A stretch of 64,000 nucleotides of DNA, taken from positions 1,160,719 to 1,224,718 of the forward strand of contig CAVSUJ010000001.1 in assembly GCA_963731205.1 (NCBI GenBank), read 5' to 3'. Positions 18,232 through 43,673 of this stretch are shown piece after piece. The translations under genes and the position numbers were made by a program. The notes under the pieces are model-generated. The model was given only the letters and a program-made list of their open reading frames with translations, did no database searches and had not been told where the DNA came from. Source of the DNA: an uncultured Actinomycetota bacterium (GTDB taxonomy: Bacteria; Actinomycetota; Actinomycetes; Frankiales; Frankiaceae). Position 1 is the first letter of the stretch. Each line of letters begins with the position of its first letter.

Positions 18232-18411
18232 TCCGGGCCCGGCGGTGCGATCAACGCCGCCGCGACCTTCCCAGCAGGACTCAACACTTCGAACATGTGT
18301 GCGAGTCTATCAGGAGCCCATGCCCCAAAACCCCTGTCATTCGCAGGCGAAAGCGGGCAGTTCGCTCAACCTGGCGATCGCGCATCATCGAATGTGTGGC
18401 AGCCTTCCCCC

Positions 18412-18981: not shown

Positions 18982-18987
18982 TTGCGG

Positions 18988-19314: not shown

Positions 19315-19430
19315 CGCCGCCCCTTTCGGAGGTCTTCCCCACGATCGTGACAGATGGGCACCCCTACCGCGACGAGGCGATAAGTATCTAGAGGATTGAC
19401 CCCTCCCCGCTCGGATCGCCCGCACTTCAC

Positions 19431-20951
19431 TTGGTAGCGTCACGCCTTGTGAGTGGGCACAGCGGAAGCGATTGGGACTCCACGCTCGACGACCTGGATC
19501 GGCGCTATGCGGCGAGCCGGGCGATGGGCGGCGAGACCCGCCTCGCGAAGCATCACGCGGCGGGCAAGCTCGATGCCCGGGCGCGGGTCGAAACCCTTCT
19601 GGATCCCGGCACTTTCCGCGAGATCGGCACGCTGACCGGCGGCGAGGTCCCGGCTGATGCGCTGGTCTGTGGTTCCGGGCTCATCGACGGCCGTCCGGTA
19701 CTGGTCGGCGCGGAAGACTTCACGACGCTGGCCGGCTCGATCGGCGGCGGCAGCAACGCCAAGCGCTACCGGATCGCCGAACTCGCTCTGCAGTACAAGG
19801 TCCCGCTGATCATGCTGCTCGAGGGGGCCGGCTACCGCCCGGCGGGACACACCGGCGGACGCTTCCCGGTCGACCTCGGGATGCAGGCCCGCTGCTCGGG
19901 GCAGGTGCCCGTGATCTGCGGTGTCCTCGGCGCTTCGGCGGGTCACGGGGCGCTCATCGCGCCGATGTCGGACTTCTGCGTGATGACGCAGCAGGCGTCG
20001 ATCTTCACTGCGGGCCCACCCGTCGTGAAGCAGTCCACCGGCGAAGACGTGACGAAGGAAGCTCTCGGCGGCCCGTCGGTCGCGATCGCGAGCGGGCTGG
20101 TGCACAACGTGGCGGGCGATGACGCCGACGCGCTCGGGCAGATCCGCCGCTACCTCAGCTACTTCCCGTCCAGCGCCTGGGCCTATCCCGATCGCCGCGG
20201 CGAGGACGAGACCACGCTCCCCCGCGCGACGCCGGAGCTCGTCGACCTGGTCCCGCGCGACAACCGGCGGGTGTACGACATGCGCCGCGTCATCGACTCG
20301 ATCGTCGACACCCAGGACTGGTTCGAGGTCCAGCCGACCTTCGGCACCGCCATGATCTGCGCGCTCGCCCATCTCGGCGGCAATCCGATCGCCATCGTCG
20401 CCAATCAGCCGCGCGTGATGGCTGGTTCGATCGACTCCCGCGCCGCTGACAAGGCAGCTCATTTCATCACCGTCGCCGATTCCTTCCACGTCCCGCTGCT
20501 CTTCCTGGCCGACAACCCCGGCGTCATGCCCGGCACCCGATCCGAGCAGACCGGCATCCTGCGCAGCGGCGCCCGCATGTATGCCGCCCAGGCGCTGGCC
20601 ACCACGCCCAAGCTCGAGGTGACGTTGCGCAAGGCCTACGGCTTCGGCTCGATGGTGATGGCGATGGCTCCGTTCGACAGCCAGACCGCGACCTTCGCCT
20701 ATCCGGGAGCCACCATGGGCGCCATGGGAGCGGCAGCCCAGGGCTCGGCCATCAACGCCGACGCCGATCAGGCGGAGTCGCTGCGCCGGGCCGAGCTGCA
20801 GGCGTCCTACCGCTCCGCCGAAGGGCTGGGCTTCGACGAGCTGATCGACCCGCGCCAGACGCGCAATGCCTTGCTCGACGCCCTCACCCGCGGGCTCTGG
20901 ACGCGTCAGCAACCTGCCGCGCCGGTGCTGCGCGTCGGTGTGACTCCGTAG
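19431..20951 (+). CDS. acyl-CoA carboxylase beta subunit (carboxyltransferase, AccD/PccB-like)
   Basis: 506 aa with two crotonase-like CT halves. Motifs include AAGKLDARARVETLLDPGTFREIG, LLEGAGYR and PLLFLADNPGVMPG. The start could instead be GTG 19449. Confidence 0.85.
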   Translation: MVASRLVSGHSGSDWDSTLDDLDRRYAASRAMGGETRLAKHHAAGKLDARARVETLLDPGTFREIGTLTGGEVPADALVCGSGLIDGRPVLVGAEDFTTLAGSIGGGSNAKRYRIAELALQYKVPLIMLLEGAGYRPAGHTGGRFPVDLGMQARCSGQVPVICGVLGASAGHGALIAPMSDFCVMTQQASIFTAGPPVVKQSTGEDVTKEALGGPSVAIASGLVHNVAGDDADALGQIRRYLSYFPSSAWAYPDRRGEDETTLPRATPELVDLVPRDNRRVYDMRRVIDSIVDTQDWFEVQPTFGTAMICALAHLGGNPIAIVANQPRVMAGSIDSRAADKAAHFITVADSFHVPLLFLADNPGVMPGTRSEQTGILRSGARMYAAQALATTPKLEVTLRKAYGFGSMVMAMAPFDSQTATFAYPGATMGAMGAAAQGSAINADADQAESLRRAELQASYRSAEGLGFDELIDPRQTRNALLDALTRGLWTRQQPAAPVLRVGVTP

Positions 20952-20954
20952 CTG

Positions 20955-22010
20955 CTAGACCACCAGGTCGAAGGAACCGAGGTCGCGGATCGCGGCAGCG
21001 GAACGCTCGGCCATGACGGTGAACATCGCGAGCCCCCGCTCGGTCGGCGCCGCGACCGCCTCGCCGAGGATGCAGATGTAGGGGCCTTGAAAGAGGCCGT
21101 AGCGGTAGTCCTCCCAGCACTGCTCGGCGGTGTAACCCGTCACGCCGAGCTCGATCAGCCGGTCGAAGTAAGCACGGACGATGGCGCGCTCGTGATCGCG
21201 GCGGGTGGCGGGATCCAGCCCGGTGCCGATCAGGTAGGCGACATCGCGCAGCGGCAGGCCGGTCGAGAGCGACTGCCAGTCGACAGCGGTGACCGCCGGC
21301 AGCCCGCTTGCGGCCGGCGCGAAGAGCAGGTTGTCGAGCCGATAGTCGTTGTGTACCAGGGCGAATGGCGACGGCCGTCCGGTGACCCAGGCGGGGAAGA
21401 TCGACGCGAAGCCCGTGAAGACCCTGGCGGTCGCCGGGTCGAGCTGCCGGCGCCCGAGGAACGCTTCGGCCGCACCCCCGAGCATCGGTCCGGTCAGCTC
21501 GGCGAGGGCAGCGGCGCTAGGGATGATCGTGTCTATTGAGCGGACGGCCGGATCACACCAGCTGCCCGCGTGCAGTCCCGCAAGCGCGACCACTGCATCC
21601 TTCGCCTGGGCGGCGGTGCAGCCGGCGATCTGATCGCCCACCGAGGCCGGCGACATGTCCTGCAGCAGCAGGGTGAAGCTGGTGGCGTCGTCGTTCACCA
21701 CCGCCAGATAGCTCTCCGGGACGGCTATCGCCAACCTGGGCGCGATGTCGCGGTAGAAGCTCACCTCGGTGCGATACGTCATGGCCGCACCGGCGCGCAC
21801 CGCCGGGTCGGCCGAGGGCAGCTTGGCGATGAGCTGCCCCGGGCCCTCTCCACGGGCGTATCGAATGACGAGCCGGTAGCACGAAGCCATCTGGCCGGTA
21901 CCCACCGCTGACACCGAGACATCGCTGACGGCAGCATCGATTCCTGCTGCCGCCAGCACCTCGGTGAGCCACTCCGGCGTGAGATCCGCCGGATCGACGA
22001 CGATCCTCAC
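20955..22010 (-). CDS. phosphotransferase family protein (APH/choline-kinase fold)
   Basis: Catalytic loop LVHNDYRLDNLLF, plus VDWQS and a Brenner-type motif; 351 aa. Confidence 0.8.
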   Translation of the reverse strand: MRIVVDPADLTPEWLTEVLAAAGIDAAVSDVSVSAVGTGQMASCYRLVIRYARGEGPGQLIAKLPSADPAVRAGAAMTYRTEVSFYRDIAPRLAIAVPESYLAVVNDDATSFTLLLQDMSPASVGDQIAGCTAAQAKDAVVALAGLHAGSWCDPAVRSIDTIIPSAAALAELTGPMLGGAAEAFLGRRQLDPATARVFTGFASIFPAWVTGRPSPFALVHNDYRLDNLLFAPAASGLPAVTAVDWQSLSTGLPLRDVAYLIGTGLDPATRRDHERAIVRAYFDRLIELGVTGYTAEQCWEDYRYGLFQGPYICILGEAVAAPTERGLAMFTVMAERSAAAIRDLGSFDLVV

Positions 22011-22017
22011 TCCGGAA

Positions 22018-23133
22018 TCAGTGTTCGAGATCGATGACCCCGCGCATGTTGAGCCCGTTGCGCATGTCGCTGTAGCCCTCGTTCACCTGATCCAGCGAGT
22101 AGCGCCGGGTGATGAGCTCATCCAGCTTCAGCCGCCCCTGCCGGTAGTGGTTGAGCATGGCGGGGATGTCCTTGGTCGGGCTGCTCGCGCCGAACAGCGA
22201 ACCCTGGATCCGCTTCTGGAACAGCGTGATCATCGCCGCGGAGACGGGGATGGAGGCGTCCATCATGTTGCCCAGCCCGGTGAGCACGCACGTGCCGGCC
22301 TTGCGGATCGCGTCGACCCCCTGGGCGATGTGCTCCCCGGTCGTCACGCCGACGCAGACGATGCACGAATCGGCGCCCTGCCCGTTGGTGAAGCTGCGGG
22401 CGATCTCGGTGCCCTCTTCCATCGTGGCGACGGCATGGGTCGCACCGAGCTTCAGCGCCATCTCGCGCTTCATCTCCACCGGGTCGACGGCGATCAGGAC
22501 GCTCGCACCCGCATGCGCCGCGCCCTGCACCGCGTTGATGCCGATGCCGCCGACGCCCATGACGATGACCACGTCACCGGCGCGGACCTCGGCCGAGTTC
22601 ACCGCCGAGCCCCAGCCGGTGCCGACGCCGCAGCTCGTCAGGCAGGCGACGTCGAGCGGGATGTCATCGGGACACGGGATGGCCGACATGGTGGAGACGG
22701 TCGTGTACTGGCTGAAGGTCGAGATGCCCGCCATCTGGCCGACCGGCTTCCCGTCCAGGTGCATGCGGTAGCTGCCGTCCATCCGGATGCCGGCGAGCGT
22801 ATTGGCGCCGTTGTCGCAGAGGTTCTGCATGCCGGACGCGCACCAGCGGCAGTGCCCGCAGGCCGGTAGGAACGACAGGACGACACGGTCGCCGACGTTC
22901 CACTCCGGGGTGCTCGGCCCGACCTGCTCGACGATGCCGGCGCCCTCGTGGCCGCCGCACATGAATCCGCCGCCGATGGGCAGGTCGCCGGTGGCGATGT
23001 GGTCATCGGAGTGACACATGCCGGCATGCTCGAGGCGGACCAGCAGCTCGTCCTGCCGCGGCTCTTCGAGCTCGACCTCGAGGATCTCCCACTTGCCCGG
23101 TTGCTCGCGAAGGACGGCTGCCTGGGTCTTCAT
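22018..23133 (-). CDS. zinc-dependent alcohol dehydrogenase (NDMA-dependent-ADH-like subgroup)
   Basis: MKTQAAVLREQPGKWEI, catalytic CHSDDH..GHEGAG, structural Zn site CGHCRWCASGMQNLC, Rossmann VMGVGGIG. Confidence 0.85.
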   Translation of the reverse strand: MKTQAAVLREQPGKWEILEVELEEPRQDELLVRLEHAGMCHSDDHIATGDLPIGGGFMCGGHEGAGIVEQVGPSTPEWNVGDRVVLSFLPACGHCRWCASGMQNLCDNGANTLAGIRMDGSYRMHLDGKPVGQMAGISTFSQYTTVSTMSAIPCPDDIPLDVACLTSCGVGTGWGSAVNSAEVRAGDVVIVMGVGGIGINAVQGAAHAGASVLIAVDPVEMKREMALKLGATHAVATMEEGTEIARSFTNGQGADSCIVCVGVTTGEHIAQGVDAIRKAGTCVLTGLGNMMDASIPVSAAMITLFQKRIQGSLFGASSPTKDIPAMLNHYRQGRLKLDELITRRYSLDQVNEGYSDMRNGLNMRGVIDLEH

Positions 23134-23205
23134 TGCGTTCCTGCCTATCGTCTCGGCCGACTGCTGCGACATTCTGCGACACTCCGCGGTCAAACTAACT
23201 CCCGC

Positions 23206-24006
23206 TCACTCCCCGCGAAAGACCGGAGTGCGCTTCTCGTGATACGCCATCATCGCCTCCGCCATGTCGGCCGTACCGACATTGACGTTCTGCGCCAGCG
23301 TTTCGGTTTCCAGCGCGCTCGCGAGTGAGCTGTTGGCGGCATTCGTCAGCATGCGCTTGGTGATGGACAACGCGATGGGCGGCCCAGCGGCGATCCGCGC
23401 CGCCACCTCGGCGACCTTGGCATCGAGCTCGTCCGTGGGCAGGACACCGTTGAGGAGGCCGAGCCCGTTAGCGCGGTCGGCGTCCATCATCTCGGCGGTC
23501 AGCGCGATCTCCTTGGCGCGATGGATTCCGACGCGCTGGGCAAGGAACCAGGAGGTGCCGAAGTCCAGGCTCAGGCCGAGCTTGGCGAAAATCGCCGAAA
23601 ACCGGGCTCTTTCGGAGCAGAACAGCATGTCGGCCGCCATCGCCAGCCCGAAGCCGGCGCCCACGGCGACGCCGTCGACCTTCGCGATGACCGGAACGGG
23701 ACATTCGTGCACCGCCATGACGGCGCCCGCGAGCCGGCGCATCCCGTTGACCTTGTTGCCTTCCCAGCCGGGATCGGGCTCGTCGCCGCCGCTGAGATCG
23801 GCTCCAGAGCAGAAATCGCCGTTGGCTCCGGTGAGGATGACGACCCGCGCATCGCTCGTGGCGAGATCACGGAACGTGTCGCGAATGGCCAGCCACATTC
23901 CCATGGAACACGCGTTGCGCCGGCCCGGGTTGTCGAGTGTCACCGTCGCGACGAAGCCGTCGCGTTCGAGCCTGACCTTGGTGTGCAAATCGGTACTGGT
24001 GCTCAA
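23206..24006 (-). CDS. enoyl-CoA hydratase/isomerase family protein
   Basis: Crotonase fold: VATVTLDNPGRRNA, ILTGANGDFCSGADL, IAKVDGVAVGAGFGLA. The TTG start overlaps the upstream stop (TTGA). Confidence 0.85.
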   Translation of the reverse strand: MSTSTDLHTKVRLERDGFVATVTLDNPGRRNACSMGMWLAIRDTFRDLATSDARVVILTGANGDFCSGADLSGGDEPDPGWEGNKVNGMRRLAGAVMAVHECPVPVIAKVDGVAVGAGFGLAMAADMLFCSERARFSAIFAKLGLSLDFGTSWFLAQRVGIHRAKEIALTAEMMDADRANGLGLLNGVLPTDELDAKVAEVAARIAAGPPIALSITKRMLTNAANSSLASALETETLAQNVNVGTADMAEAMMAYHEKRTPVFRGE

Positions 24007-25517
24007 CTTCGCCCCTTGCTCCGCAGCAGCTCCTGGAGTGCTGACTTGTCTACTTTGGCGGTTGCCGTCATGGGTACGTCGTTCGCGTCGCCGATGACCC
24101 AGATCGTCGGCACCTTGAAGGCGCTGAGGCGGGCCCGCGCGGCTCGGGCAACCTGCTCCAGCGGCGCGGAGGTGACGACGTACGCGGCGACCTGCGCAGC
24201 GCCGGACTCGTCGCGTACATCGGTGACGAACGCGAGCCGCACCTCGTCGATGGCCCGCAGCGCCCCCTCCACCTCGGTCGGGAAAACCGTGGCGCCCTTG
24301 ACCTTGAACATGTCGTCGCGCCGGCCGCCGTACCAGAGGTAGCCGTCGTCATCGAGCGATCCGAGGTCGCCGGTGGGATAGAAACCGTCGGGGCGGAAGA
24401 CCTCTTCGCGCGTACGCCCGCACATGCCACGCATGACGTTGGGACCGCGCACGCAGATCTCGCCGGTGACCCCAGCTGCGCATTCCTCGCCGCTTTCCGG
24501 GTCGAGGATCCGGACCTCGAAGCCTTCGAAAGGCCTGCCGCAGCTGCCGAACTTGGCGGGCGGGAGGTCGAGGTCGAGCCGGTCTCCGCAGTAGGGGCCG
24601 AAGGTCTCGGTCATGCCGAACAGGTTGGCGCGGGCACCGGGCCCGGCCCTGAGTCCGGGGGGTAGCACCGCGGCAAGGCTGCCCGGGCGCAGGCTGGAAA
24701 GGTCGGCATCAGCGAAACTCGGATGTGCGGCGAGGCGTGCCGCCTGATCGGGCCAGCCACGAAAGAGCGTGGCGCGTTCCCTTTGGAGCATGGCCAGCGT
24801 GCGGTCGGGCTCGGGCACCGCTTCGGTGAGCAGCGTGGCGCCCGCGACGAGCACCGACATCAGGCCGCTGGAGAAGCCGCCGGTCCAGAAGAACGGCATC
24901 GGGATGTAGAGCCGCTCGTCACTGCCGACCCGGCGGCTCTCCAGCCCTGACGCGGTCGCTCGCAGTCCCCCGCCATGGGTATGGATGACGCCCTTCGGTG
25001 CTCCCCTGCTGCCGGACGTGAACAGCACCACCAGATCGTCCGCCGGCCGCACGTCGGCCTCCAGCGCCGCGACGAGATCGTCACTGACAGCGGGCTCGGG
25101 AAGCGCGTCGAGCGCCCAGACGTGTCGAAGCAGTGGCGGCGGGTCCAGGCTCTTGACCTCCTCCAGATATCTGCGGCCGCGAAACTCTCGCGCGACGATG
25201 AGATGGGTGACCCCGGCAACGTCCAATTGTGCTTTCAGTTCAGGGGGTTTCAGCAGTGTGCTGAGCGGCACGAGCACGGCGCCGATGCGCATGACCGCGA
25301 CCCCGGCGAGCACCCACTCGATGCCGTTGGGGGCCATCAGCGCGACGCGAGAGCCCTTGCCGACCCCGGCGGCGACGAGGCGGCCGGCGAGCTGACGGCT
25401 GCGGTCATCGAGCTCGGCGTGGGTGATGCTCCCGCCCTCCGACACGACGACCGGCTTGTCCGGCGCAGCGGCCCGGTTGCGCTGCAGGAGGCGTGGGAGC
25501 GTCAGCTCAGCGGGCAC
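24003..25517 (-). CDS. acyl-CoA synthetase / AMP-dependent ligase (paralogue 1)
   Basis: GTG 25517 overlaps the upstream gene by 11 nt. AMP-binding motifs LFTSGSRGAPKGV, YPTGDLG and the C-terminal SAFKVP. Confidence 0.85.
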   Translation of the reverse strand: MPAELTLPRLLQRNRAAAPDKPVVVSEGGSITHAELDDRSRQLAGRLVAAGVGKGSRVALMAPNGIEWVLAGVAVMRIGAVLVPLSTLLKPPELKAQLDVAGVTHLIVAREFRGRRYLEEVKSLDPPPLLRHVWALDALPEPAVSDDLVAALEADVRPADDLVVLFTSGSRGAPKGVIHTHGGGLRATASGLESRRVGSDERLYIPMPFFWTGGFSSGLMSVLVAGATLLTEAVPEPDRTLAMLQRERATLFRGWPDQAARLAAHPSFADADLSSLRPGSLAAVLPPGLRAGPGARANLFGMTETFGPYCGDRLDLDLPPAKFGSCGRPFEGFEVRILDPESGEECAAGVTGEICVRGPNVMRGMCGRTREEVFRPDGFYPTGDLGSLDDDGYLWYGGRRDDMFKVKGATVFPTEVEGALRAIDEVRLAFVTDVRDESGAAQVAAYVVTSAPLEQVARAARARLSAFKVPTIWVIGDANDVPMTATAKVDKSALQELLRSKGRS

Positions 25518-27081
25518 TGATCCGCTCCTTGAGTGCGCGGGCGTCGAGCTTGCCGCTCGACAACATGGGGACGTCCTGATCGGCGAGAAAGACGATGCGC
25601 TGCGGCACTTTGTACGCCGACAGTCGCGCCCGCAGAGCGCGTCGCAATGCGTCGACGTCAGGCTCGGGATGGCCGGCCGGTAGCCGGACGGCAGCCGCGA
25701 CGAGCTCGCCGCGCTCGGCGTCAGCGACGCCGACCACGTGCGCGACAAAGGTGGTCTCCTCGAGGATCGCGGCCTCGACCTCGCGGGGTGAGACGTTAGC
25801 CCCCGCCGTCTTGATCATGTCGCCGCTGCGGCCCGTGAAGTAGCAGAAGCCCTCGTCATCGACGTGGAAGAGGTCGCCGGTGTGATACCAGCCATCGGCG
25901 TCGAACGTCTCGTGGCGCTCGCGCCCGTAGTAACCCTCCATCAGGAACGGGCCGCGAAAGCACAGCTCCCCGACCTCGCCCACGGCAAGCTCCACACCAC
26001 TTTCAGGATCGACGATTTTGGCCTCGAACCCCGGCGCCGGTCGGCCGAACGAACCGCGTCGTGATTCGGGCTGATCGCCCTCGTCCTCGCTCACCAGGCA
26101 GACGCTCCCGGCCTCGGTCATGCCGAGCATGTTGTGCCGCAGCTCCGGATCGGCGGCCCGGACGTCGGCCGGCATGATCGGCCACAGGTTGCCGCGCCGG
26201 ATCGAACTCAGATCCCGCTGCGCGAATGTCGGATCCTTCGGCAGGTGGGCCACCGTCCCGGCGAAGCCGTTCACCATGGTCGGCTTGGTGGCCTCGAGCA
26301 GGTCGAGCACCTCGGCGGGTTCGACGGCGTTGGAGCAGACGAGCGTGGCACCGGCGAGGAGCGTCCCGAGCAGCCCGTACGCGAACCCGCCGATCCAGAA
26401 GAACGGCGAGTTGGAGAACAACACTTCGGCCGGGTCATAGCGCCTGATGGCGTTGAGGTTGTCGAGGTGGCGCAGCAGCGCGCCGTGCTGATGGATGACT
26501 CCCTTGGGTGCGCTGGTGGATCCCGATGTGTGGACGATGACGAGCCGGTCGGCGGCGACCACCGTCGCTTCCGCGGCCTGCAGGGCGGCGTCCGGGATCG
26601 CCTGCCCGGCTGCGGCGATCGGCTCCGAGGCGAAGAAGACGTGTCGCAGTGCAGGCGCGTGGACGTTGTGCAACGGCGAGGCGTCCGGGTCCAGGCCCGG
26701 CACTGCCTCACGAAGCGCTTGCACGTAGTCGCGGCGGCGGTAGCTCGCCGCCCCGAGCAGGATCTCGATGTCGGCGCCGCGGAGAAGGCCATGCAATTCC
26801 GGTGCGGTCGAGAACGTGCTGAGCGGTACGGCGATCGCGCCGATCCGTGCGGCCGCCAGGCACCCGACGACGAAGTCGGCGCCGTTGGGGTAGAGCAGTG
26901 CGACGCGGGTGCCCTTGCCGGCTCCACAGGCCAGCAAACCCTTGGCCAGCGCGGCGGACCGGACCTGCGCGTCGGCGTAACTGAGGACCTCGTCGTCGCA
27001 GATCAGCAGGGCGTGGTCACCGCGCGCCGCCGCCTGCTCGCGCAGCCGCGCCGGCAGCGTCAGCGAACGTGCTGAAGTCAC
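25507..27081 (-). CDS. acyl-CoA synthetase / AMP-dependent ligase (paralogue 2)
   Basis: GTG 27081 overlaps the upstream stop (GTGA). Motifs HTSGSTSAPKGV, YHTGDLF and SAYKVP. Confidence 0.85.
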   Translation of the reverse strand: MTSARSLTLPARLREQAAARGDHALLICDDEVLSYADAQVRSAALAKGLLACGAGKGTRVALLYPNGADFVVGCLAAARIGAIAVPLSTFSTAPELHGLLRGADIEILLGAASYRRRDYVQALREAVPGLDPDASPLHNVHAPALRHVFFASEPIAAAGQAIPDAALQAAEATVVAADRLVIVHTSGSTSAPKGVIHQHGALLRHLDNLNAIRRYDPAEVLFSNSPFFWIGGFAYGLLGTLLAGATLVCSNAVEPAEVLDLLEATKPTMVNGFAGTVAHLPKDPTFAQRDLSSIRRGNLWPIMPADVRAADPELRHNMLGMTEAGSVCLVSEDEGDQPESRRGSFGRPAPGFEAKIVDPESGVELAVGEVGELCFRGPFLMEGYYGRERHETFDADGWYHTGDLFHVDDEGFCYFTGRSGDMIKTAGANVSPREVEAAILEETTFVAHVVGVADAERGELVAAAVRLPAGHPEPDVDALRRALRARLSAYKVPQRIVFLADQDVPMLSSGKLDARALKERISAR

Positions 27082-27728
27082 GGTGCGCTCCGCCGCGGGG
27101 AGACCGGGGCGAGCCGGGCCCGATCGCCCGCCACGGCCTGCATCGCGGCGCTGCACAAAGGCTTCTCGGGCCTGTCCGGACGGAGCAATCGCGCTCGCGA
27201 GGTGATGCGGGTGTCGTCGACCTCGCGGTCGATCTCGAACGTCAGCGCCTCGAAGAGGGGGGTCGGCCGGTGGTACTCGACGAGCAGCGAGGTCGTCTTG
27301 CCGGCCACCCCGACATCGCAATTGTGATGCTGGATCACGCAGTCGAAGAAGGTCGCGAGCACGCCGCCGTGCACGATGCCGGGCGGCCCTTCGAAGGCGA
27401 GTGGAAAGGTCACCGACCCCGTGGCTCGAGCGCCGTCGATCTCGATCGCGTAGACCGGAAAGGCGGGGTTGTAGGCACCGATGTCACGGCTGTGATCGAG
27501 ATACACCCGACGCTCGGCGCCCGCATCGACGCCCACCCGCGGCGCCAGGTCACCCGGCGCGACGGCTTCCAACGATGCGTGGGCGCTGCGCAGATCGGCA
27601 ATCAGCTGCGCGACCGCGTCGTCCTCGCCCTCCATCGCCACGACGAGCCCCGCCACCCGCCGCAGCAGCGCCGCCGCCTCCTGGGTCTGCGTCAACGGCT
27701 CGACGCCGAACGTCCAGCGCTCGGTCAT
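27078..27728 (-). CDS. PaaI-family (hotdog-fold) thioesterase-like protein with ~90-aa N-terminal extension
   Basis: GPPGIVHGGVLATFFD motif; 216 aa; ATGA overlap with the upstream gene at 27725-27728. Confidence 0.7.
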   Translation of the reverse strand: MTERWTFGVEPLTQTQEAAALLRRVAGLVVAMEGEDDAVAQLIADLRSAHASLEAVAPGDLAPRVGVDAGAERRVYLDHSRDIGAYNPAFPVYAIEIDGARATGSVTFPLAFEGPPGIVHGGVLATFFDCVIQHHNCDVGVAGKTTSLLVEYHRPTPLFEALTFEIDREVDDTRITSRARLLRPDRPEKPLCSAAMQAVAGDRARLAPVSPRRSAP

Positions 27729-29200
27729 CGCGCCGCCTCATGCTCGGCGATCAGCCCGCGGACAGCCGACAGGTCGACCTTGCCCGACGGCGTGCGCGGA
27801 AGCTCGTCGACGATGCGCAACACGGTCGGAATCTCATAGCGGGCAAGCACTTTCGAGGCGTCAGCGAGCAGCTCGTCGGAGGTGACCGAGCCGGCGCCGG
27901 GCCGCAGCTCGACAGCAGCGACCGGCACCGCGCCGAGACGGGGATCGTCCATTCCGACGACGGCTGCGGTGTGCACGCGAGGGTCTGACTCCAGCGCAAC
28001 CCGTACGTCATCCGGCAGCACCTTGAATCCTCCGCGGATGATGGCCTGATCGGCCCGGCCGAGGATCCAGAGGAAGCCGTCGGCGTCGAGTCGGGCGAGG
28101 TCGGTGGTCCGGTTCCAGGCCAGCTCGTCGCCGAGTTGGCGAGCCCGCACCTCCAGGACGCCCGGCGTCGCAGGCGGCAGCGGCTCACCCGTCTCCTGGT
28201 CGACGACGCGAAGTTCGCAACCGGCATGGGCGCGTCCGACGCTTCCTCGCTTGGCTGCCCAGAACTGCTGGTGATCCTTGAGGTTCCAGCCCGCGACGCC
28301 GCCGCCGAACTCCGTCGCCGCATAGGTGACGAGCACAGGCACTCCATACTTGGTGAAGAACGCATCGGCGTCCTCGGGCGACAGAGGCGCTGTGCCGGAG
28401 ATGACCGACCGGACGCTCGCCAGATCCTCCGGGTCGAGATCGGCGTCCAGGATCATCCGCAACGCGGTGGGTACCAGGCTCACCGTCGTCGGCCGGTGCC
28501 GGCGTACCGCATCGACCCAGTCGTCCACCGTGAACTTCGGCAACAGGCAGAACGAGCGCCCGTCGGCAACGCACTGCAGCACCCGGAAGAGTCCGCCCAG
28601 ATGCACGAGCGGCGCGTTGATGACGGCCACGCCCGAGCGCAGCTTCAGCTCGACCTGCTTGGCGCTCTCGTAGTGCTTCGCGCCGGCGAGCACCCGCCAA
28701 AGCGTCTCGTACGTCAGGGGAATCCGCTTGGGCGGACCGGTCGTCCCGCTGGTGAGCATCTCGACCGCCACGCCCGGAGCGAACGTCGTCGCGGTCTGCG
28801 GCACCCGGTCAGTCACCGTCGCCGCGCCCAGCGCCTCGCTGCTGATCCACCGCACCTCGCCGGGCCGCGGCGCCAGCGCCTCGAGATCTTCGGACGTGCC
28901 CGCGACTGTCCCAACCCCCAATTCGGCGAGGTCGGTGCGCACCCGGTCGATTCCGCGCCCTGGATTGACCGTGACCACGCAGGCGCCGGCGCTGATCAGC
29001 CCGATGAGCAGACCGACGTGTTCCGGGCGGTTGCGCAGGAGCAGCGCCACCCGCTCCCCCGGCGCAACCTCAGAGCCCAAAAGCCTTGCCGAATCAGCGA
29101 TCTGGCCCCAGGTGAACCACTCGCGGGTGAATTCCAGCGCGGGCGCGGCGGGATCGAGGGTGAGGATCTGCTGGATCCGATCAGTGAGCGGCGCGGTCAC
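27725..29200 (-). CDS. acyl-CoA synthetase / AMP-dependent ligase (paralogue 3)
   Basis: GTG 29200 overlaps the upstream stop (GTGA). Motifs LTSGTTGPPKR, and YATEFGG. The C-terminus ends TPSGKVDL. Confidence 0.8.
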   Translation of the reverse strand: MTAPLTDRIQQILTLDPAAPALEFTREWFTWGQIADSARLLGSEVAPGERVALLLRNRPEHVGLLIGLISAGACVVTVNPGRGIDRVRTDLAELGVGTVAGTSEDLEALAPRPGEVRWISSEALGAATVTDRVPQTATTFAPGVAVEMLTSGTTGPPKRIPLTYETLWRVLAGAKHYESAKQVELKLRSGVAVINAPLVHLGGLFRVLQCVADGRSFCLLPKFTVDDWVDAVRRHRPTTVSLVPTALRMILDADLDPEDLASVRSVISGTAPLSPEDADAFFTKYGVPVLVTYAATEFGGGVAGWNLKDHQQFWAAKRGSVGRAHAGCELRVVDQETGEPLPPATPGVLEVRARQLGDELAWNRTTDLARLDADGFLWILGRADQAIIRGGFKVLPDDVRVALESDPRVHTAAVVGMDDPRLGAVPVAAVELRPGAGSVTSDELLADASKVLARYEIPTVLRIVDELPRTPSGKVDLSAVRGLIAEHEAAR

Positions 29201-29991
29201 CGAAACCTCGGGGGTGGCCGGTCGGCGCCGCGCTCCGCGACCTCGGCGGAGCCGATGGGGTTGCCGATGCGCGTGTAGATGAGCCCCTGCTCCATGGCTG
29301 CGCGGTAAGGCCGATCGAGCGATTCCCAGATTGCCCGCACGGTGCCCTGGGTCGCCGCCGTCGGCTTGCGCGCGATGCCGGCAGCGATCTCGTGCGCGCG
29401 CCCCCACAATGCCTCGCGCGTCACGACCTCCGTCACGATGCCGATGCGCAACGCGGTCTGCGCCGTCACACGCTCGTCATTGCCCGACAGCGCCATCCGT
29501 AGCGTTTCACCGAGGCCGATCCTGCGCATCAGCCCCACGGGTTCGAGCGCCGAGACCAGACCGTAGGTCACGTGGGAATCGAAGAAGGTGGCGTCGTCGG
29601 AGCAGATGATGATGTCGGACTCGTTGAGGAAGTAGAACGCGCCGGCCGTGCATATTCCCTGGACAGCACAGACCACCGGCTTCCAGACCTGCAGCCACTT
29701 CGGGCTCAGCGAGCGGCCCGGATCCTCGTGATTCCAGATGTCATCGGGCTGGCCGTAGGGCTTGCTGGTGTCGAGCCCGGAGCAGAACGCGCGGTCACCG
29801 GCCGCCCGCAGCACCACGGCATGCACCGAAGGGTCGGTCTTCACGCGGTGCCAGACGTCCTGCAGCTCCTCACACATCTGGCGGTCGAACGCGTTGAGCA
29901 CCTCGGGACGGTTCAGCGTGATGGTCGCGACGTGATCGTCAGCCGTCTCGTAGATGACCTTCTCGTACGCGCCGCTCACCGGCATCGCCAT
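29197..29991 (-). CDS. enoyl-CoA hydratase/isomerase family protein
   Basis: VATITLNRPEVLNAF, AAGDRAFCSGLD and VCAVQGICTAGAFYF; 264 aa. Confidence 0.85.
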   Translation of the reverse strand: MAMPVSGAYEKVIYETADDHVATITLNRPEVLNAFDRQMCEELQDVWHRVKTDPSVHAVVLRAAGDRAFCSGLDTSKPYGQPDDIWNHEDPGRSLSPKWLQVWKPVVCAVQGICTAGAFYFLNESDIIICSDDATFFDSHVTYGLVSALEPVGLMRRIGLGETLRMALSGNDERVTAQTALRIGIVTEVVTREALWGRAHEIAAGIARKPTAATQGTVRAIWESLDRPYRAAMEQGLIYTRIGNPIGSAEVAERGADRPPPRFR

Positions 29992-30779
29992 TCGGGCTGG
30001 CGTTTCTCGACAAACGCCAACGGCCCTTCCTTCGCGTCGTCGGTGCGCACCACCCGCTCCCGGAACGCCTCGGCGAGGATCTCGGCCTCGTTCAGCGGGA
30101 GGTCGAGGCCCTTGCGGATCGCCAGCCGGGTGCCGCGCACGGCGAGCGGCGCATTGCGGTTGACCGTCGCGGCGATCTCGCGCGCCCGGTCCATCAGCTT
30201 GTCGTGCTCGACCACTTCCGACACCAGGCCGAGCTGATACGCGCGGTCGACCTTCATGCGTTCGTGGCGTCCCATGAGGGCCATGCGCATGGCGATGTGT
30301 GTCGGCAACGCCCGGGCCAGCCGGACGACCTCGCGCGCCGATACCAGCCCGATGCTCACGTGGGGGTCGAAGAACTCAGCGCGGTCCGAGGCGATGACGA
30401 TGTCGCCAGTGGTCACCCAGTCCAGCCCGGCACCGCAGCAGAGGCCGTTGATCGCCGCGAGCACCGGCTTGGTCATCGTGCGAAACGGCGGGGTGCCCTC
30501 CTGCGGTGCCTCCCACTGCGGGTACGTCGACAGGTAGGGCTCGTCGTAGATGACCCGGCCGTCCTCGGGGATCTCGGTCACATCGGCACCGGCGCAGAAA
30601 GCCCTCCCCTTGCCGGTGACGATGAGGATCCAGACGCCCTCGTCGGCCTCGGCCATCGCGTAGGCATTGCGCAGCTCGCCGACCATTTCGGGACTGAGCG
30701 CATTGAGCTGATCCGGCCGGTTGAACGTGATCGTCGCCACGCGGTCGGCGACCTCGTAGTCGATCGTCGCGAAGTTCAT
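29976..30779 (-). CDS. enoyl-CoA hydratase/isomerase family protein
   Basis: ATG 30779 is preceded by GGGAGAGG. VATITFNRPDQLNAL, VTGKGRAFCAGADV and LAAINGLCCGAGLD. Confidence 0.85.
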   Translation of the reverse strand: MNFATIDYEVADRVATITFNRPDQLNALSPEMVGELRNAYAMAEADEGVWILIVTGKGRAFCAGADVTEIPEDGRVIYDEPYLSTYPQWEAPQEGTPPFRTMTKPVLAAINGLCCGAGLDWVTTGDIVIASDRAEFFDPHVSIGLVSAREVVRLARALPTHIAMRMALMGRHERMKVDRAYQLGLVSEVVEHDKLMDRAREIAATVNRNAPLAVRGTRLAIRKGLDLPLNEAEILAEAFRERVVRTDDAKEGPLAFVEKRQPEWRCR

Positions 30780-30859
30780 GACGACAGCCTCTCCCACCCC
30801 GGTTCGCCTGTGACAGACACCTCAGCGCATCCCGTCCGGCCAGCCGCCCGGAGCATGGA

Positions 30860-30873
30860 AACATCCAGATATT
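30860..30873. promoter_or_regulatory. candidate operator, copy A of the AACATCTAGATGTT palindrome (12/14)
   Basis: AACATCCAGATATT lies in the divergent intergenic region between the crotonase genes at 30779 (-) and 30922 (+). Confidence 0.45.
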
Positions 30874-30921
30874 AAGACTAGGCTCCCGTGTCGTGCACGC
30901 GCAACGCTGGAGGCGAGACAG

Positions 30922-31809
30922 GTGACTGACCCCCGGGTGCTGCTCGATCGGGATGAGGCCACCGGCATCGCCCGGATCACGCTGAACAACGCCGAACGGC
31001 GCAACAGTTACGACGCGGCGATGCGCCAACAGATGGCCGAATACCTCGACGATCTCGCTGATGACGATGCCGTCAAGGTCGTCGTGCTCCGCGGCGAGGG
31101 CGGCGTCTTCAGCACCGGCGCTGATATGGGAAACGCCTACGGCTGGTACGGCAAGGGCGCCGAGAAGCCTGCTACCAATGGGGATCGGCCGGGGCGCGCG
31201 CGCCGGCCGAGCCAGCGGCGCCGGCTCGCGGTGGATCGTGAGGCGTTCAGCTTCTACCACAGCCTGATGGGCTACCCGAAGGTCACCGTCGCCGAGGTGA
31301 GGGGTTACGCCCTCGGCGGCGGCTTCGAGATGGCGCTCATGGCGGACATCTCGGTGGTCGCCCGCGATGCCAAAATCGGTATGCCCGCCACCCGGTTCCT
31401 GGGCCCGGCGCTGGGCTCGCTGCACCTGTTCTTCCACCGGCTCGGGCCGGTGCTCGCGCGCCGCCTGCTGCTGACCGGCGACACCGTCGAAGCGTCCTCG
31501 TTCGAGCACCTGACGGTCTTCACCGAGGTCGTCGACGACGAGCGGGTCGCCCCGCGTGCCGACTGGTACGCCCGAAAGATCGCCAAGATGCCGGCCGATG
31601 GCATCGTCATGGCCAAGGAAGCCTTCCGGCTCGTGGAGCAGCTGCAGGCGTACTCGGGCGAAGAGGTCGCCAGCTATCTCTTCCACGCGTTCGGCACCAA
31701 CCTGCAGTTCGAAGAGGACGAGTTCAACTTCGTGAAGGTGCGGGCGGCTCACGGCACCAAGCGCGCGTTCCAGCTGCGCGACGAGCACTTCGAGGTCCCC
31801 GAGCCCTGA
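30922..31809 (+). CDS. enoyl-CoA hydratase/isomerase family protein
   Basis: IARITLNNAERRNSY, LRGEGGVFSTGADM and VRGYALGGGFEMAL; 295 aa. Confidence 0.85.
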   Translation: MTDPRVLLDRDEATGIARITLNNAERRNSYDAAMRQQMAEYLDDLADDDAVKVVVLRGEGGVFSTGADMGNAYGWYGKGAEKPATNGDRPGRARRPSQRRRLAVDREAFSFYHSLMGYPKVTVAEVRGYALGGGFEMALMADISVVARDAKIGMPATRFLGPALGSLHLFFHRLGPVLARRLLLTGDTVEASSFEHLTVFTEVVDDERVAPRADWYARKIAKMPADGIVMAKEAFRLVEQLQAYSGEEVASYLFHAFGTNLQFEEDEFNFVKVRAAHGTKRAFQLRDEHFEVPEP

Positions 31810-31814
31810 GCTCG

Positions 31815-31828
31815 AACATCTAGATCTA
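31815..31828. promoter_or_regulatory. candidate operator, copy B of the AACATCTAGATGTT palindrome (12/14)
   Basis: AACATCTAGATCTA lies 64 nt upstream of the TTG start at 31892. A related CTAGATTCGC follows at 31851-31860. Confidence 0.45.
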
Positions 31829-31891
31829 TTCGCGCCTCCAGGCCGGTCGGCTAGATTCGCCGCAAAGCCACGCACGCCCAGGAGACGCATC

Positions 31892-35252: not shown

Positions 35253-35329
35253 CTTGCAGTTGTAGCACCCCCGCCAAGGCCGGACAACGCCACTTTCCGA
35301 ATCCGAAAGGGTGCCTGTACTCTGCGGCG

Positions 35330-36502
35330 ATGGAGCTCGGATTCCAGGCCATCGACGCGGACAATCACTACTACGAGACGATCGACGCGTTCACCAGGCA
35401 TCTCGATCCGAAATTCCGCCAGCGCGGCGTGCAAGTCGTGCAGTCCGGCAAGCGCTACCAGCTGCTGATGGGTGAGCGGGTCAACCGCTTCATCCCCAAC
35501 CCGACGTTCAACCCGATCATCGTGCCGGGCTGCCTCGACGTGATGTTTCGCGGCCAGGTCCCCGAAGGCGTTGATCCGCGCACCCTCATGGAAGTCGAGC
35601 CGCTGCGCCCGGAGTACCAGGATCACGATGTTCGCGCCGAGGTCGCCCAGCAGCAGGGGCTGGAATCGGTACTGCTCTTCCCCACCCTCGGCTGCGGGGT
35701 CGAGGAGGGCCTGAAGGACGACATCGCCGCGACGATGGCCAGCCTCTCGGCGTTCAACCGCTGGCTCGAGGAGGACTGGGGCTTCGACTACCGCGGCAAG
35801 CTGATCGCCGCGCCCATGCTTTCCCTCGCCGATCCACAAGCGGCCCTGGACGAGCTCAACAGCCTGATCGAGCGGGGCGCCCGCATCGTTCACGTCAGGC
35901 CGGCGCCGGTCCCGGGCGAGCACGGCAGCTCACGCTCGCTGGGACACCGCAGCCATGACCCGGTGTGGGCGCGCCTCGCCGAAGCGTCGGTCCCGGTGGC
36001 ATTTCACCTGGGCGACAGCGGCTACAACGCGCTCACGTCAGCCTGGGGCGGAAGCGCGACCTTCGAGGGCTTCGGCAACACCAACATCCTCAGCCGCATC
36101 CTGGTCTCCGACCGGGCGATCCACGACACCGTCGCCTCGCTCGTCATCGACGGCGTCTTCGCCCGCCATCCGGCCCTTCGCGTCGCCAGCATCGAAAACG
36201 GCTCCGACTGGGTGAAGCTGCTCGTGAAACGGCTGCGCAAGCAGGCCAACCAGACTCCCTGGGCGTTCAGCGAGGATCCCCGCGAGACGCTTCGGCGCCA
36301 CGTCTGGGTCACCCCCTACTACGAGGAGGATCTGGCGGCGCTGGCCGAGGTCATCGGCGTGGAGCGGATCCTCTTCGGCTCCGACTGGCCACACGGCGAG
36401 GGGCTCGCCGAACCGACCGACTTCGCCAAGGAGCTCGACGGCTTCAGCACGGCAGAGGTGCGCAGGATCATGCGCGACAACAGCCTGGAACTGCTGGGTT
36501 AA
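35330..36502 (+). CDS. amidohydrolase family protein (paralogue of 34056..35252)
   Basis: IDADNHYYE, VAFHLGDSG and FGSDWPHGEG, the same motif set as the divergent neighbour. Confidence 0.8.
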   Translation: MELGFQAIDADNHYYETIDAFTRHLDPKFRQRGVQVVQSGKRYQLLMGERVNRFIPNPTFNPIIVPGCLDVMFRGQVPEGVDPRTLMEVEPLRPEYQDHDVRAEVAQQQGLESVLLFPTLGCGVEEGLKDDIAATMASLSAFNRWLEEDWGFDYRGKLIAAPMLSLADPQAALDELNSLIERGARIVHVRPAPVPGEHGSSRSLGHRSHDPVWARLAEASVPVAFHLGDSGYNALTSAWGGSATFEGFGNTNILSRILVSDRAIHDTVASLVIDGVFARHPALRVASIENGSDWVKLLVKRLRKQANQTPWAFSEDPRETLRRHVWVTPYYEEDLAALAEVIGVERILFGSDWPHGEGLAEPTDFAKELDGFSTAEVRRIMRDNSLELLG

Positions 36503-37773
36503 CGCGAGCCGGAGGCCGCGGGCCCACGAGGGACGTCGCGAAAAGCCTCGCTGTCGGCGCGGCGCTCGCGGGGCATCCCGAGCAGCCGCTCGCTGATGAC
36601 GTTGCGCGCCATCTCGGTGGTGCCGCCGCCGATGCACGCCGCCTGGCGCACCACGTAGCCGAGCGCCACCTGGGCGTCGGTGCGGTGGGCGGGATCCCAG
36701 GCGACAGCCGTCTCGCCGGCCAGCTCGAACGCGATACTGGCCCGCCGGGTGGTCGCCATCCCGCTGAACAGCCGCAATATTGCCGCGGCGTGGTGTGAGA
36801 GGGCTCCGTCGGCCATCTTGCGCGTCACCGAATGCACCAGCGCCGAGCGCACCAGCCCGAGGACGCGTGCCTCGCCGATGAGCTCCTGCGTGCGTGGCTC
36901 GTCCCAGGTGCCCCGCTCGCGGGCCAGAGCCGCCATGACGCCTGCCTCGTACGGTCCCTCGGTCGACTGGTTGCCCTGTCCGGTCACGTACATCGAGCCG
37001 CCCGCGATGGTGCGCTCGTGATACAGCCAGCGGGTCACCACGTCCCAGCCGGCGTCGACGTCACCGATCCGGTCGGCGTCGGAGACCACCACGTCAGTGA
37101 GGAACTCCTGGCAGAACTCGCGTGAGCCGTTGACCAGTTCGATGCGCCGCACCTCGATCCCCGGCGTCGACATCGGGAAAGAGAAAACCGTGAGCCCGCG
37201 GTGCTTTTCGGCGTCCCAGTTGGTACGCGCCAGGCAGATCGCCCAGTCTCCGTACCAGCCCGCCGTCGTCCAGATCTTGGACCCGTTGAGCACCCACTGA
37301 TCGCCTTCACGGGTGGCGGTCGTCACCGCGCTGGCCGCGTCGGAACCGCTGCCCGGCTCGGAGAGGAACTGGATCCAGATCTCCTCGCCGCGCAGCATCG
37401 CTGGGATGTGGCGCAGCTTCTGCTCCTCGGTGCCGAACTCGAGCAGCAGCGCCATCGCCGGGATGAACGTCGACGCCTGGATCTCGGCCGGGTAGTCGTA
37501 GCCGCGGAGCTCGCGGTTGAAGGCCGCCTGGTGTGCCGGCGTCAGCCCCTGTCCGCCGTACTCGGGCGGCACGCAGATCCCCGCGAACCCGCCTTCGAAA
37601 AGCCGGCGCTGCAGATCCCGGCAGGTCTGGATGCGGGCCAGGTCCTCCGCGTCGCTACTGCCGGTCGCCGTCAGGAAGAACTGGGCGGCCGCCGGATCAG
37701 CAGCGGGGAGATTGTCCGGCAGCCATGCACGGGCTCGTGCGGCGTATTCCTCGACGGTCGGCAGGACACTCAT
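36499..37773 (-). CDS. acyl-CoA dehydrogenase family protein
   Basis: 424 aa. ACAD middle-domain motif LSEPGSGSDAAS..WVLNGSKIWTT and the C-terminal GGGTTEMARNVISERLLG. Confidence 0.85.
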   Translation of the reverse strand: MSVLPTVEEYAARARAWLPDNLPAADPAAAQFFLTATGSSDAEDLARIQTCRDLQRRLFEGGFAGICVPPEYGGQGLTPAHQAAFNRELRGYDYPAEIQASTFIPAMALLLEFGTEEQKLRHIPAMLRGEEIWIQFLSEPGSGSDAASAVTTATREGDQWVLNGSKIWTTAGWYGDWAICLARTNWDAEKHRGLTVFSFPMSTPGIEVRRIELVNGSREFCQEFLTDVVVSDADRIGDVDAGWDVVTRWLYHERTIAGGSMYVTGQGNQSTEGPYEAGVMAALARERGTWDEPRTQELIGEARVLGLVRSALVHSVTRKMADGALSHHAAAILRLFSGMATTRRASIAFELAGETAVAWDPAHRTDAQVALGYVVRQAACIGGGTTEMARNVISERLLGMPRERRADSEAFRDVPRGPAASGSR

Positions 37774-38882
37774 CGCGGCGCCCCCGCCGTCTCGATGAGC
37801 TCCGCCACACGACGGCTGGCGTGCTCCGGGGTGCCGTACAGCTGGGCGTCGGTGACGGCACGGCGCAGGAAGAGGTGCAGGTCGTGCTCGAACGTCACCC
37901 CGATGCCCCCGTGCAGCTGGATGCAGTCCTGGATCATTTCCGGCCCGTGACGGCCCGCGTACGCCTTCGCGGCAGCGGCCCAGGTGCTCGCGTCAGCCGC
38001 CTGCTCCCCCACCGACCGGGCGGCGCGCGCAGCGACGGCCTCGCACGCCTCCAGGTGCATGCGCAGGTCAGCGACGCGATGCTTGATCTCCTGGTAGGAC
38101 GCGAGTGGCCGCCCGAAGGAGTAGCGGTCGAACGTCCAGGCCAGCGTCATCTCGAAGGCCCGCTCCATCGCTCCGGCGATCTCCCCGGCCTGCAGGACCG
38201 CCATCACCTCGAGCAATGCGCCGTCCTGCGCGCCTCCCTGCCCGGGTGTCCCGACCCGGGTCTCGACGGGAACTCTGACGTCGGTGAACGTCACGCGGTG
38301 AAAGCGCCGGGTGAGGTCCAGGCCCTCCAGCCCGGAGAGTGACATTCCGGGCGTGGCCAATGGCACGAGAAACTGGGTTATGCCCTGCTCCATTTCAGCC
38401 GATACGAGCAGGTGATGCGTATCCGCTGCAGCGTCGACGCAGGCCACCGCGCCGTTGAGCACGACATGCTCACCGGCGAGGGCTGCGTGGACGGCGCCAC
38501 CCGTCAGGCCGGCCCAGGCGGCAATGGCGGCCCCCGACAGCAGATCCGCCAGGGGACCCTCGCGTTGCTCGATCGATCCCCATCGCCCCAAAGCGAGCGC
38601 GACCACGTTGCTCCCGAAGAGGGGTCCCGGAGCCGCGTGGCGCCCGAAGTGGTGCGCCACGATGAGCAGATCGAGCAATCCGTTGCCACTGATCGATCCC
38701 CCGCCGCCGGTTTCGGGGACCAGCAACGACGTCCAGCCGAGCTCAGCGCCCCGCTTCCAGATCGCCGGCTCGAACCCCGGGGCATACCTCATTTCACGGA
38801 TGCGTTCACTCCCGTAATGGGCTGCCAGGAACTGCGCCGTGGTCGCCTCGAACAGCTGTTGATCTTCCGACAGGGGGAACAT
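37770..38882 (-). CDS. acyl-CoA dehydrogenase family protein
   Basis: ATG 38882 (MFPLSEDQQLF) is preceded by GGAG. C-terminal IQLHGGIGVTFEHDLHLFLRR. Overlaps the downstream ACAD by 4 nt. Confidence 0.8.
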   Translation of the reverse strand: MFPLSEDQQLFEATTAQFLAAHYGSERIREMRYAPGFEPAIWKRGAELGWTSLLVPETGGGGSISGNGLLDLLIVAHHFGRHAAPGPLFGSNVVALALGRWGSIEQREGPLADLLSGAAIAAWAGLTGGAVHAALAGEHVVLNGAVACVDAAADTHHLLVSAEMEQGITQFLVPLATPGMSLSGLEGLDLTRRFHRVTFTDVRVPVETRVGTPGQGGAQDGALLEVMAVLQAGEIAGAMERAFEMTLAWTFDRYSFGRPLASYQEIKHRVADLRMHLEACEAVAARAARSVGEQAADASTWAAAAKAYAGRHGPEMIQDCIQLHGGIGVTFEHDLHLFLRRAVTDAQLYGTPEHASRRVAELIETAGAPR

Positions 38883-38907
38883 CGCGCTCCGCGGCAGAAG
38901 GGCCATA

Positions 38908-38921
38908 AACATCTACATGTT
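38908..38921. promoter_or_regulatory. candidate operator, copy C of the AACATCTAGATGTT palindrome (13/14)
   Basis: AACATCTACATGTT lies between the ACAD operon start (38882, -) and cysD (39035, +). It matches the consensus at 13/14 read on either strand. Confidence 0.5.
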
Positions 38922-39034
38922 AGGCCGAATGGCCGCCTTTGCGAGCGAGTCGGCAGCAAGCGGGTCACAAGAACAGGGAGAATGCCGTTTATGAGAAGTA
39001 GGCAGGCCACTACCGAAACGCGAACGAGGTTGGG

Positions 39035-43505: not shown

Positions 43506-43673
43506 GTGACCTCCAGTCGGCCAGCACAGGAGGCCAGCGGGATCGGCCGGCAGCGTCGGCCTCGCGCAGAGGCTACCAACGAGGCCGCTGACACCGCGGT
43601 CCCAACGTGATGGGAGGGTGGTCGGAACACGGCGCAGGACCGAGTGAAACGGAGTGGTCGCGTGACCGCAGTC

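Follow-up and report, generated by a model that had tools for sequence, protein, structure and literature searches.

A conserved palindrome in the promoters of a CoA-ester gene island of an uncultured Frankiaceae bacterium and the GntR-family regulator that probably reads it

Palindromic operators of local repressors are commonplace in catabolic islands. An AT-rich palindrome that recurs between the genes of a CoA-ester island in an uncultured Frankiaceae bacterium raises the question of whether it is such an operator, which protein reads it and which genes it would join. The island lies in a stretch of 64,000 nucleotides (C1:1160719-1224718, hereafter the window; 66-71% GC) of a 4.65-Mb genome in two contigs (G000; other genomes are likewise cited by G numbers), whose nearest named relatives are uncultured Frankiaceae and Actinomycetota metagenome-assembled genomes. 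The original prediction, made from the window itself, listed four 14-mers (30860-30873, 31815-31828, 38908-38921 and 19383-19396), each of which reads exactly as given, and took them for the operator of one dimeric helix-turn-helix regulator with a regulon across the island. The discrete 16-bp palindrome, its promoter position and its conservation across genera all agree with the predicted operator, and the regulon gains support in silico and extends to other loci. Its reader is probably the GntR-family protein encoded at 42744-43505, which carries an FCD effector domain.

Enrichment and conservation of the palindrome

The copies considered here are the following, three of them as 16-bp predicted operators.

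30859..30874, no strand: predicted operator O1, aAACATCCAGATATTa; the 142-bp region that holds it separates the minus-strand crotonase/ligase operon from a divergent plus-strand crotonase gene
31814..31829, no strand: predicted operator O2, gAACATCTAGATCTAt, upstream of the ligase gene at 31892, 63 nt from its TTG start
38907..38922, no strand: predicted operator O3, aAACATCTACATGTTa, between a pair of acyl-CoA dehydrogenase (ACAD) genes (minus strand) and cysD (plus strand)
19383..19396, no strand: doubtful fourth copy, AGTATCTAGAGGAT, 35 nt upstream of an AccD-like gene

Within the window, four matches to AACATCTAGATGTT with at most three mismatches were found against 0.29 expected from shuffles, a comparison that is circular in that the consensus was derived from the same sites. 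Across the whole genome there are eight matches with at most two mismatches, five of them non-coding; outside the window, the labels coding and non-coding are approximate, since they come from our own crude GC3-based caller of open reading frames (ORFs), which over-extended starts and gave the GntR gene the wrong strand. By comparison, 209 control palindromes with the same half-site composition as the motif averaged 0.89 matches and 0.29 non-coding matches, and a single one of them, the codon-like ATCATCATGATGAT, attained five non-coding matches. The tetramer CTAG is strongly avoided in this genome (1569 occurrences seen, 13,461 expected, or 0.12 of expectation), and the three ATCTAGAT octamers of the genome all fall within predicted sites. 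As side observations on the same composition, TCTAGA occurs 48 times against 331 expected and GATC is 2.8-fold over-represented.

A test free of circularity was obtained with a 16-bp matrix trained on 34 sites from two other genera only. Its top five positions in the genome were 30860, 38908, C1:1969079, C1:1883151 and 31815, with scores from 27.2 to 21.8, whereas the best score in the reversed genome was 16.8. O1 thus has the highest score genome-wide (27.2), O3 the second (25.0) and O2 the fifth (21.8). The genome-wide scan found enrichment in non-coding DNA and supports neither a random distribution nor a dispersed repeat; the three strong copies (30860, 31815 and 38908) are real and far beyond chance. 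The copy at 19383 did not hold up in the same way. The first matrix gave it less than 6 and the cross-genus matrix 16.4, where the null maximum is 16.8, and we regard it as doubtful; the nearest relative, G009, keeps its left half and TCTAGA core (CTATCTAGAGGAAT), which are absent from G002, where the junction differs. Another candidate, C2:2127925 (AACATCCAGATCTT), had a good score with the first matrix but lies in apparent unannotated coding sequence and scored 12.7 with the cross-genus matrix; it was set aside as a false positive.

The alignment of 58 non-coding sites from 12 genomes gave the consensus wAAYATCTAGATRTTw, with information within 16 bp and flanks at background level, although the sites were gathered with a symmetric matrix, which favours symmetry. 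Information limited to 16 bp rules out a dispersed repeat and makes a simple promoter box less likely. Orthologous promoters of different genera retain their sites in spacers that have otherwise diverged, and the motif was found upstream of orthologous gene clusters in several genera. O1 is kept at the orthologous position in G001, G002, G004, G005, G006, G009, G010 and G012, and a site lies directly upstream of orthologues of the crotonase gene at 30922 in nine other genomes (G002, G004, G005, G006, G009, G010, G018, G024 and G047). O3 is kept at the ACAD/cysD junction of G001, G002, G005, G009, G010 and G012, and is intact in G005 although the ACAD gene of that genome is disrupted. O2 is partly conserved, as GACATCTAGAGCTT in G009; it is degenerate in G001 and deleted in G002. 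A literature search with the motif sequence and its sub-strings returned only cloning primers with XbaI sites.

These results bear on two simpler explanations. It is hardly credible that the copies arose by chance or belong to a mobile element or dispersed repeat: the consensus was indeed built post hoc from the same sites, and the fourth copy lies in DNA missing from G002, beside a DUF222/HNH gene, but the composition-matched controls, the cross-genus matrix, backwards-pattern controls in 61 genome searches, the dissimilar flanks and the orthologous conservation all speak against it. Such an origin is unsupported for the three strong copies and possible for that at 19383. We also consider it quite unlikely that the AT-rich sequence serves transcription initiation only, as a -10 or -35 box or as a promoter read by an alternative sigma factor, and is not a repressor site. 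AT-rich islands in DNA of 69% GC are often promoters, TANNNT-like hexamers (TAATAT, TAACAT) lie within or next to the sites, and ttGGAA and CTAGG flanks are conserved as well at the crotonase promoter. A promoter box, however, agrees poorly with two-fold symmetric information that ends at 16 bp, with blank flanks over the 58 sites (collected, as said, with a symmetric matrix), with the occurrence of sites in both orientations at variable distances from start codons, or with a presence and absence that follow one regulator gene and not a sigma factor.

Candidate regulators of the palindrome

The original prediction proposed three local regulators as possible binders, namely a TetR-family protein at 16325-16969 and the following two.

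41860..42681, minus strand: TetR-family regulator (Pfam TetR_N), syntenic with the GntR gene
42744..43505, minus strand: GntR-family regulator with FCD effector domain (Pfam GntR and FCD)

The number of motif matches (at most one mismatch to AAYATCTAGATRTT) was compared with the presence of orthologues of the three regulators in 56 genomes of the order. An orthologue of the GntR protein is present in 26 genomes; 24 of these have at least one site and 19 at least two. Among the 30 genomes without it, seven have a single site and none has two or more. The three genomes of the window's own genus that have neither the GntR gene nor the island (G003, G007 and G008) show match counts equal to those of the backwards-pattern control, so that the motif is missing from sister genomes without island and regulator, as expected of a regulator-linked operator. 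In genus g6, the GntR orthologue occurs in one of 14 genomes, G047, which alone has five sites, three of them perfect, and in which orthologues of the crotonase, ACAD and amidohydrolase genes form an island as well.

Sites are also located beside the GntR genes themselves. Both GntR copies of G020 have a site 110-125 nt upstream, and G018 and G070 have one site in the divergent region that precedes the GntR gene and another directly after it; over these three genomes the upstream sites are 110-200 nt away. In G013 and G018, the GntR gene is inside operons headed by a site. No TetR gene was detected near the GntR clusters of G013, G018, G020 and G070, which belong to other genera. Since the distribution of its orthologues matches that of the motif and sites stand beside its genes, the GntR protein is the best candidate, and we regard it, on this comparative evidence, as probably the protein that binds the palindrome.

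Of the other two candidates, the TetR protein at 16325-16969 is excluded, its orthologues being confined to the window's genus, including the motif-less G003, and absent from all genomes of the genera g2, g6 and g7. The TetR protein at 41860-42681 had been first choice for its synteny and was downgraded by its distribution over the order. That this protein is the binder now seems improbable to us, even though AT-rich palindromes of 14-20 bp are common TetR operators, the gene is syntenic with the ACAD pair and the GntR gene across the genus, its orthologue in G005 is in a site-headed operon adjoining another site, and those of G047 and G058 are embedded in site-bearing operons. Against this stand seven genomes (G013, G018, G055, G056, G057, G060 and G070) that have no orthologue at E<=1e-40 and three to seven sites each at the same mismatch limit, as well as three others in which the orthologue is split into two frames (G010) or carries an in-frame TGA (G047, G059) and which keep four, five and one sites, respectively. 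Moreover, the 20-kb stretch around the orthologue in G024 has no site, nor is there one upstream of the gene in the window. The TetR protein is probably a second, pathway-internal regulator that does not bind the palindrome. A further explanation, to which we give a similarly low probability, is that the palindrome is the operator of another regulator encoded elsewhere and that both local regulators control other things. In this genus neither of them has the palindrome in its own promoter, the helix-turn-helix of the GntR protein resembles those of relatives that read GT..AC, and the cross-genome profiling covered three candidate regulators only. On the other side, GntR orthologues of other genera have sites immediately in front of them or at the head of their operons, and in each of the genera compared, the presence of the GntR gene predicts that of the motif; this includes g6 with its one positive genome.

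The disrupted TetR orthologues are found at G010:C9:18517-19274, G047:C198:127781-128575 and G059:C7:213242-214000, and represent either assembly errors or real decay.

Several observations weigh against the GntR protein as binder. No copy of the palindrome was found in the region upstream of the local GntR-TetR pair, nor does the window's genus have one there; a different, GC-rich element occupies this position.

43556..43582, no strand: separate conserved GC-rich element, GCCTC-N5-GAGGC beside TACCAAC, upstream of the GntR-TetR pair and distinct from the palindrome

In an alignment of G000, G001, G005, G009 and G010, this element is conserved in an otherwise divergent spacer; it may be the pair's own promoter or operator. 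The recognition helix of the GntR protein, VSRPSLREAL, resembles that of PdhR; operators of the FadR subfamily, such as that of PdhR, are usually of the type T.GT-N(0-3)-AC.A, and wAAYATCTAGATRTTw has no GT-N-AC core, its AC...GT being of opposite polarity. Because the motif co-occurs with the whole island, any island gene shares part of the co-occurrence signal, and the related genomes among the 56 are non-independent observations. Finally, a strict sigma-70 scan found no promoter, and the overlap of operators and promoters described below rests on the reading of TANNNT hexamers.

The domains of the GntR protein were assigned in the ORF 42744-44021 (PF00392, 2.2e-17; PF07729, 4e-16). Its N-terminus aligns to the DNA-binding domains of PdhR, of FadR-family proteins and of the structure 2DI3, with that of PdhR nearest, while the nearest solved full-length relative is PDB 2DI3 (E 4e-13). 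No NCBIfam equivalog model reached its cut-off, the best being NanR with 91 bits against 260. The ERE arginine of the recognition helix is replaced in most, not all, orthologues, and is too variable to support claims about specificity.

Genes, promoters and the predicted regulon

The genes and the hexamer that surround the predicted operators are as follows.

20955..30779, minus strand: predicted operon 3' of O1 (Pfam; gene order kept with the site in relatives)
30879..30884, plus strand: TAGGCT, inferred -10 hexamer of the plus-strand crotonase promoter (read from the sequence)
30922-31809, plus strand: crotonase (Pfam), 3' of O1
31892-33430, plus strand: acyl-CoA ligase (Pfam), TTG start, 3' of O2
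36499..38882, minus strand: ACAD gene pair of the PimC/PimD- or IpdE-like heteromer type (Pfam, NCBIfam), 3' of O3
39035..41838, plus strand: cysD-cysNC, with a PAPS_reduct domain in cysD, beginning 114 nt downstream of O3 on the other strand

According to Pfam, the minus-strand operon codes for two crotonases, three AMP-forming ligases, a crotonase, a zinc-dependent alcohol dehydrogenase and an APH/EcKL-like kinase; it starts at ATG 30779, with GGGAGAGG upstream. An isochorismatase-like protein and two divergent amidohydrolase_2 genes are also present in the island, and no copy of the palindrome was found in the divergent region between the amidohydrolase genes (35253-35329). From their position next to the sites, the operon 20955..30779, the crotonase gene 30922-31809, the ligase gene 31892-33430 and the ACAD pair would all be members of the regulon. 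The longest ACAD reading frame begins at ATG 38912, within O3. The true start is more likely ATG 38882, in view of a conserved N-terminus, MF(P/L)L..DQ..LFE, and a GGAG Shine-Dalgarno sequence, and the site at 38908 would therefore be wholly intergenic. In four genomes (G000, G001, G005 and G010), cysD has a site 100-140 nt in front of it; for this reason, and because O3 is intact in G005 despite the decay of the ACAD gene, cysD-cysNC may be under the same control through O3.

Three other features of these loci can be mentioned. Between two ligase genes of the minus-strand operon, a 136-aa ORF (27321-27728, minus strand) matches no Pfam family at E<=0.001. In G005 (locus L042, G005:C4, 9585-11557), the orthologue of the ACAD gene at 37770 is broken, residues 9-40 and 51-170 being about 1.5 kb apart and the remainder gone; the second ACAD gene, both amidohydrolase genes, the isochorismatase-like gene and the ligase gene are missing there as well. 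Upstream of the AccD-like gene, the window has about 2.5 kb (16966-19443) that contrast with G002 (L027, 57-970), in which the orthologue of the TetR gene at 16325 directly adjoins the AccD-like gene. This extra DNA holds a DUF222/HNH-type gene and a 151-aa ORF with homologues in G005, G009 and G012 and a weak partial match only in G002; G005 has an HNH homologue nearby. On L027 (G002:C250, about 690-770), the direct repeat CACACGATCCGTTGC is present twice, with about 50 nt between its copies, in the spacer that separates the TetR orthologue from the AccD-like gene.

The sequence around the sites indicates how control could operate. O1 occupies the 18-nt spacer between ATGGAA at 30855-30860 (TTGGAA in relatives) and TAGGCT, and also overlaps a TAATAT hexamer on the opposite strand, directed toward the minus-strand operon; the ttGGAA ... 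CTAGG flanks are conserved at orthologous crotonase sites only. O2 ends 23 nt upstream of a conserved TAGATT hexamer. For the ACAD pair, the overlap is between O3 and a minus-strand TAACAT, about 33 nt ahead of the start codon. The positions of these hexamers suggest steric repression, lifted by an FCD-bound pathway intermediate. In the mechanism that we propose, a dimeric winged-helix regulator would recognise wAAYATCTAGATRTTw as its operator, and this regulator is most probably the FCD-type GntR protein 42744-43505. Free of ligand, the regulator would occupy the core promoters of CoA-ester catabolic operons and block RNA polymerase: O1 would fill the space from the inferred -35 to the inferred -10 element of the crotonase promoter and also cover the TAATAT of the opposite strand, O2 would abut the -35 position of the ligase promoter, and O3 would overlap both the TAACAT taken as the -10 element of the ACAD pair and the predicted start of its transcript. 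Binding of an acid or acyl-CoA intermediate to the FCD domain would then release the regulator.

The predicted regulon reaches beyond the island, with support for at least two, and probably four, other loci in G000, whose genes are functionally related to those of the island. The site C1:1883151 precedes genes for a LivJ-like solute-binding protein (Peripla_BP_6) and an alpha/beta hydrolase; in G004 and G006, the orthologous binding-protein gene is within the island and has its own site. C1:1969079 stands between a divergent operon coding for a two-domain family-III CoA-transferase, a ligase and two ACADs and a gene for a luciferase-like oxidoreductase. Lower-scoring sites precede an amidohydrolase_2 gene (C1:1280479) and a ligase gene (C2:531122), which are probably further loci. 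The regulon in G000 would comprise the three promoters of the window, C1:1883151 and C1:1969079, and probably C1:1280479 and C2:531122.

Some larger genomes of the family have at least 20 copies of the palindrome, including copies in front of dehydrogenase genes. In the large genomes G013, G018 and G024, 21-26 matches at two mismatches or fewer were counted against 4-10 for the backwards control, and sites precede crotonase, ligase, ACAD, amidohydrolase, alcohol dehydrogenase (ADH), thioesterase-like, Rieske oxygenase and APH-like genes. There are hints that, in these genomes, the regulon extends to the oxygenative breakdown of a substrate that is a ring or resembles a terpenoid. A copy of the palindrome is found at the start of a KshA-like Rieske oxygenase gene (L037, G013:C8, 5978-7192), and P450 and short-chain dehydrogenase/reductase genes are nearby in G018 and G024.

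We tentatively suggest, as a possibility that goes well beyond the binding itself, that in some Frankiaceae the catabolism of lipid- or terpenoid-like CoA esters has as its master switch an FCD-type GntR protein with a guanine-poor, dre-like operator (AAYA-TCTAGA-TRTT). Such a protein would do the work of KstR while belonging to another family, with about six promoters under its control here and at least 20 in the large genomes; in this genus, the shared O3 would also couple the synthesis of 3'-phosphoadenosine 5'-phosphosulfate (PAPS; cysD-cysNC) to the pathway. The regulon genes occur in an uncultured soil genus of Frankiaceae and in large-genome relatives of the family. If the assignment to the GntR protein holds, it provides a regulon map for uncharacterised CoA-dependent genes (crotonases, ligases, heteromeric ACADs, amidohydrolase_2 and the binding protein), and shared control would help to guess the substrate and join scattered loci into one pathway. 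An FCD-type GntR protein with an unusual AT-rich operator would also inform the diversification of DNA specificity in a very large family, and the pair of repressor and operator would be a compact one for high-GC hosts.

Comparison with known operator systems

The regulon recalls those of the TetR-family repressors KstR and KstR2, which control lipid and steroid catabolism in Mycobacterium and Rhodococcus. The likeness lies in one palindrome that recurs, in a high-GC actinobacterium, ahead of many fadD/echA/fadE-type operons and of amidohydrolase, P450 and Rieske oxygenase genes. The two systems are nevertheless not identical, as the original prediction had already noted from the spacing: the palindrome here has AAC-N8-GTT, in contrast to TnnAACnnGTTnnA, both local TetR proteins (21.3 and 19.6 bits) fall far under the cut-off of 280 of the NCBIfam KstR model, and the best candidate regulator is of the GntR family.

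A second resemblance is to the dre of the HutC-subfamily regulators DasR of Streptomyces and NagR of Bacillus subtilis. In the crystal structure of NagR with DNA, a GntR-family dimer reads GTGG-TCTAGA-CCAC (PMC4333415); the idealised dre is GTGGTCTAGACCAC, with half-sites from -7 to -4 and from +4 to +7 (PMC4333415). Our palindrome has the same 14-bp 4+6+4 layout and central TCTAGA, but its half-sites are AAYA/TRTT and not GTGG/CCAC, which makes arginine-guanine contacts of the NagR type impossible. In addition, the candidate carries an FCD domain and not one with the UTRA/chorismate-lyase fold, and the targets are CoA-ester catabolic genes and not N-acetylglucosamine genes. With both half-sites and effector domain different, the palindrome does not belong to the DasR/NagR dre system.

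A further parallel is with the FCD-type GntR repressors of the FadR subfamily, such as PdhR and FadR of E. coli and the LldR-type protein of Corynebacterium glutamicum (2DI3). The candidate has the same domain architecture, a GntR winged helix followed by a C-terminal FCD domain, and the palindrome is, as in that subfamily, a symmetric predicted operator linked to the regulator and placed in the promoters of a catabolic regulon, with autoregulatory sites in some genomes. It differs in its AT-rich operator, AAYA-TCTAGA-TRTT, which departs from the T.GT-N(0-3)-AC.A arrangement, and in its targets, which are crotonase, ligase and ACAD genes and not those for pyruvate, lactate or sugar acids. The system is a new example of a well-known type of switch and leaves general concepts unchanged.

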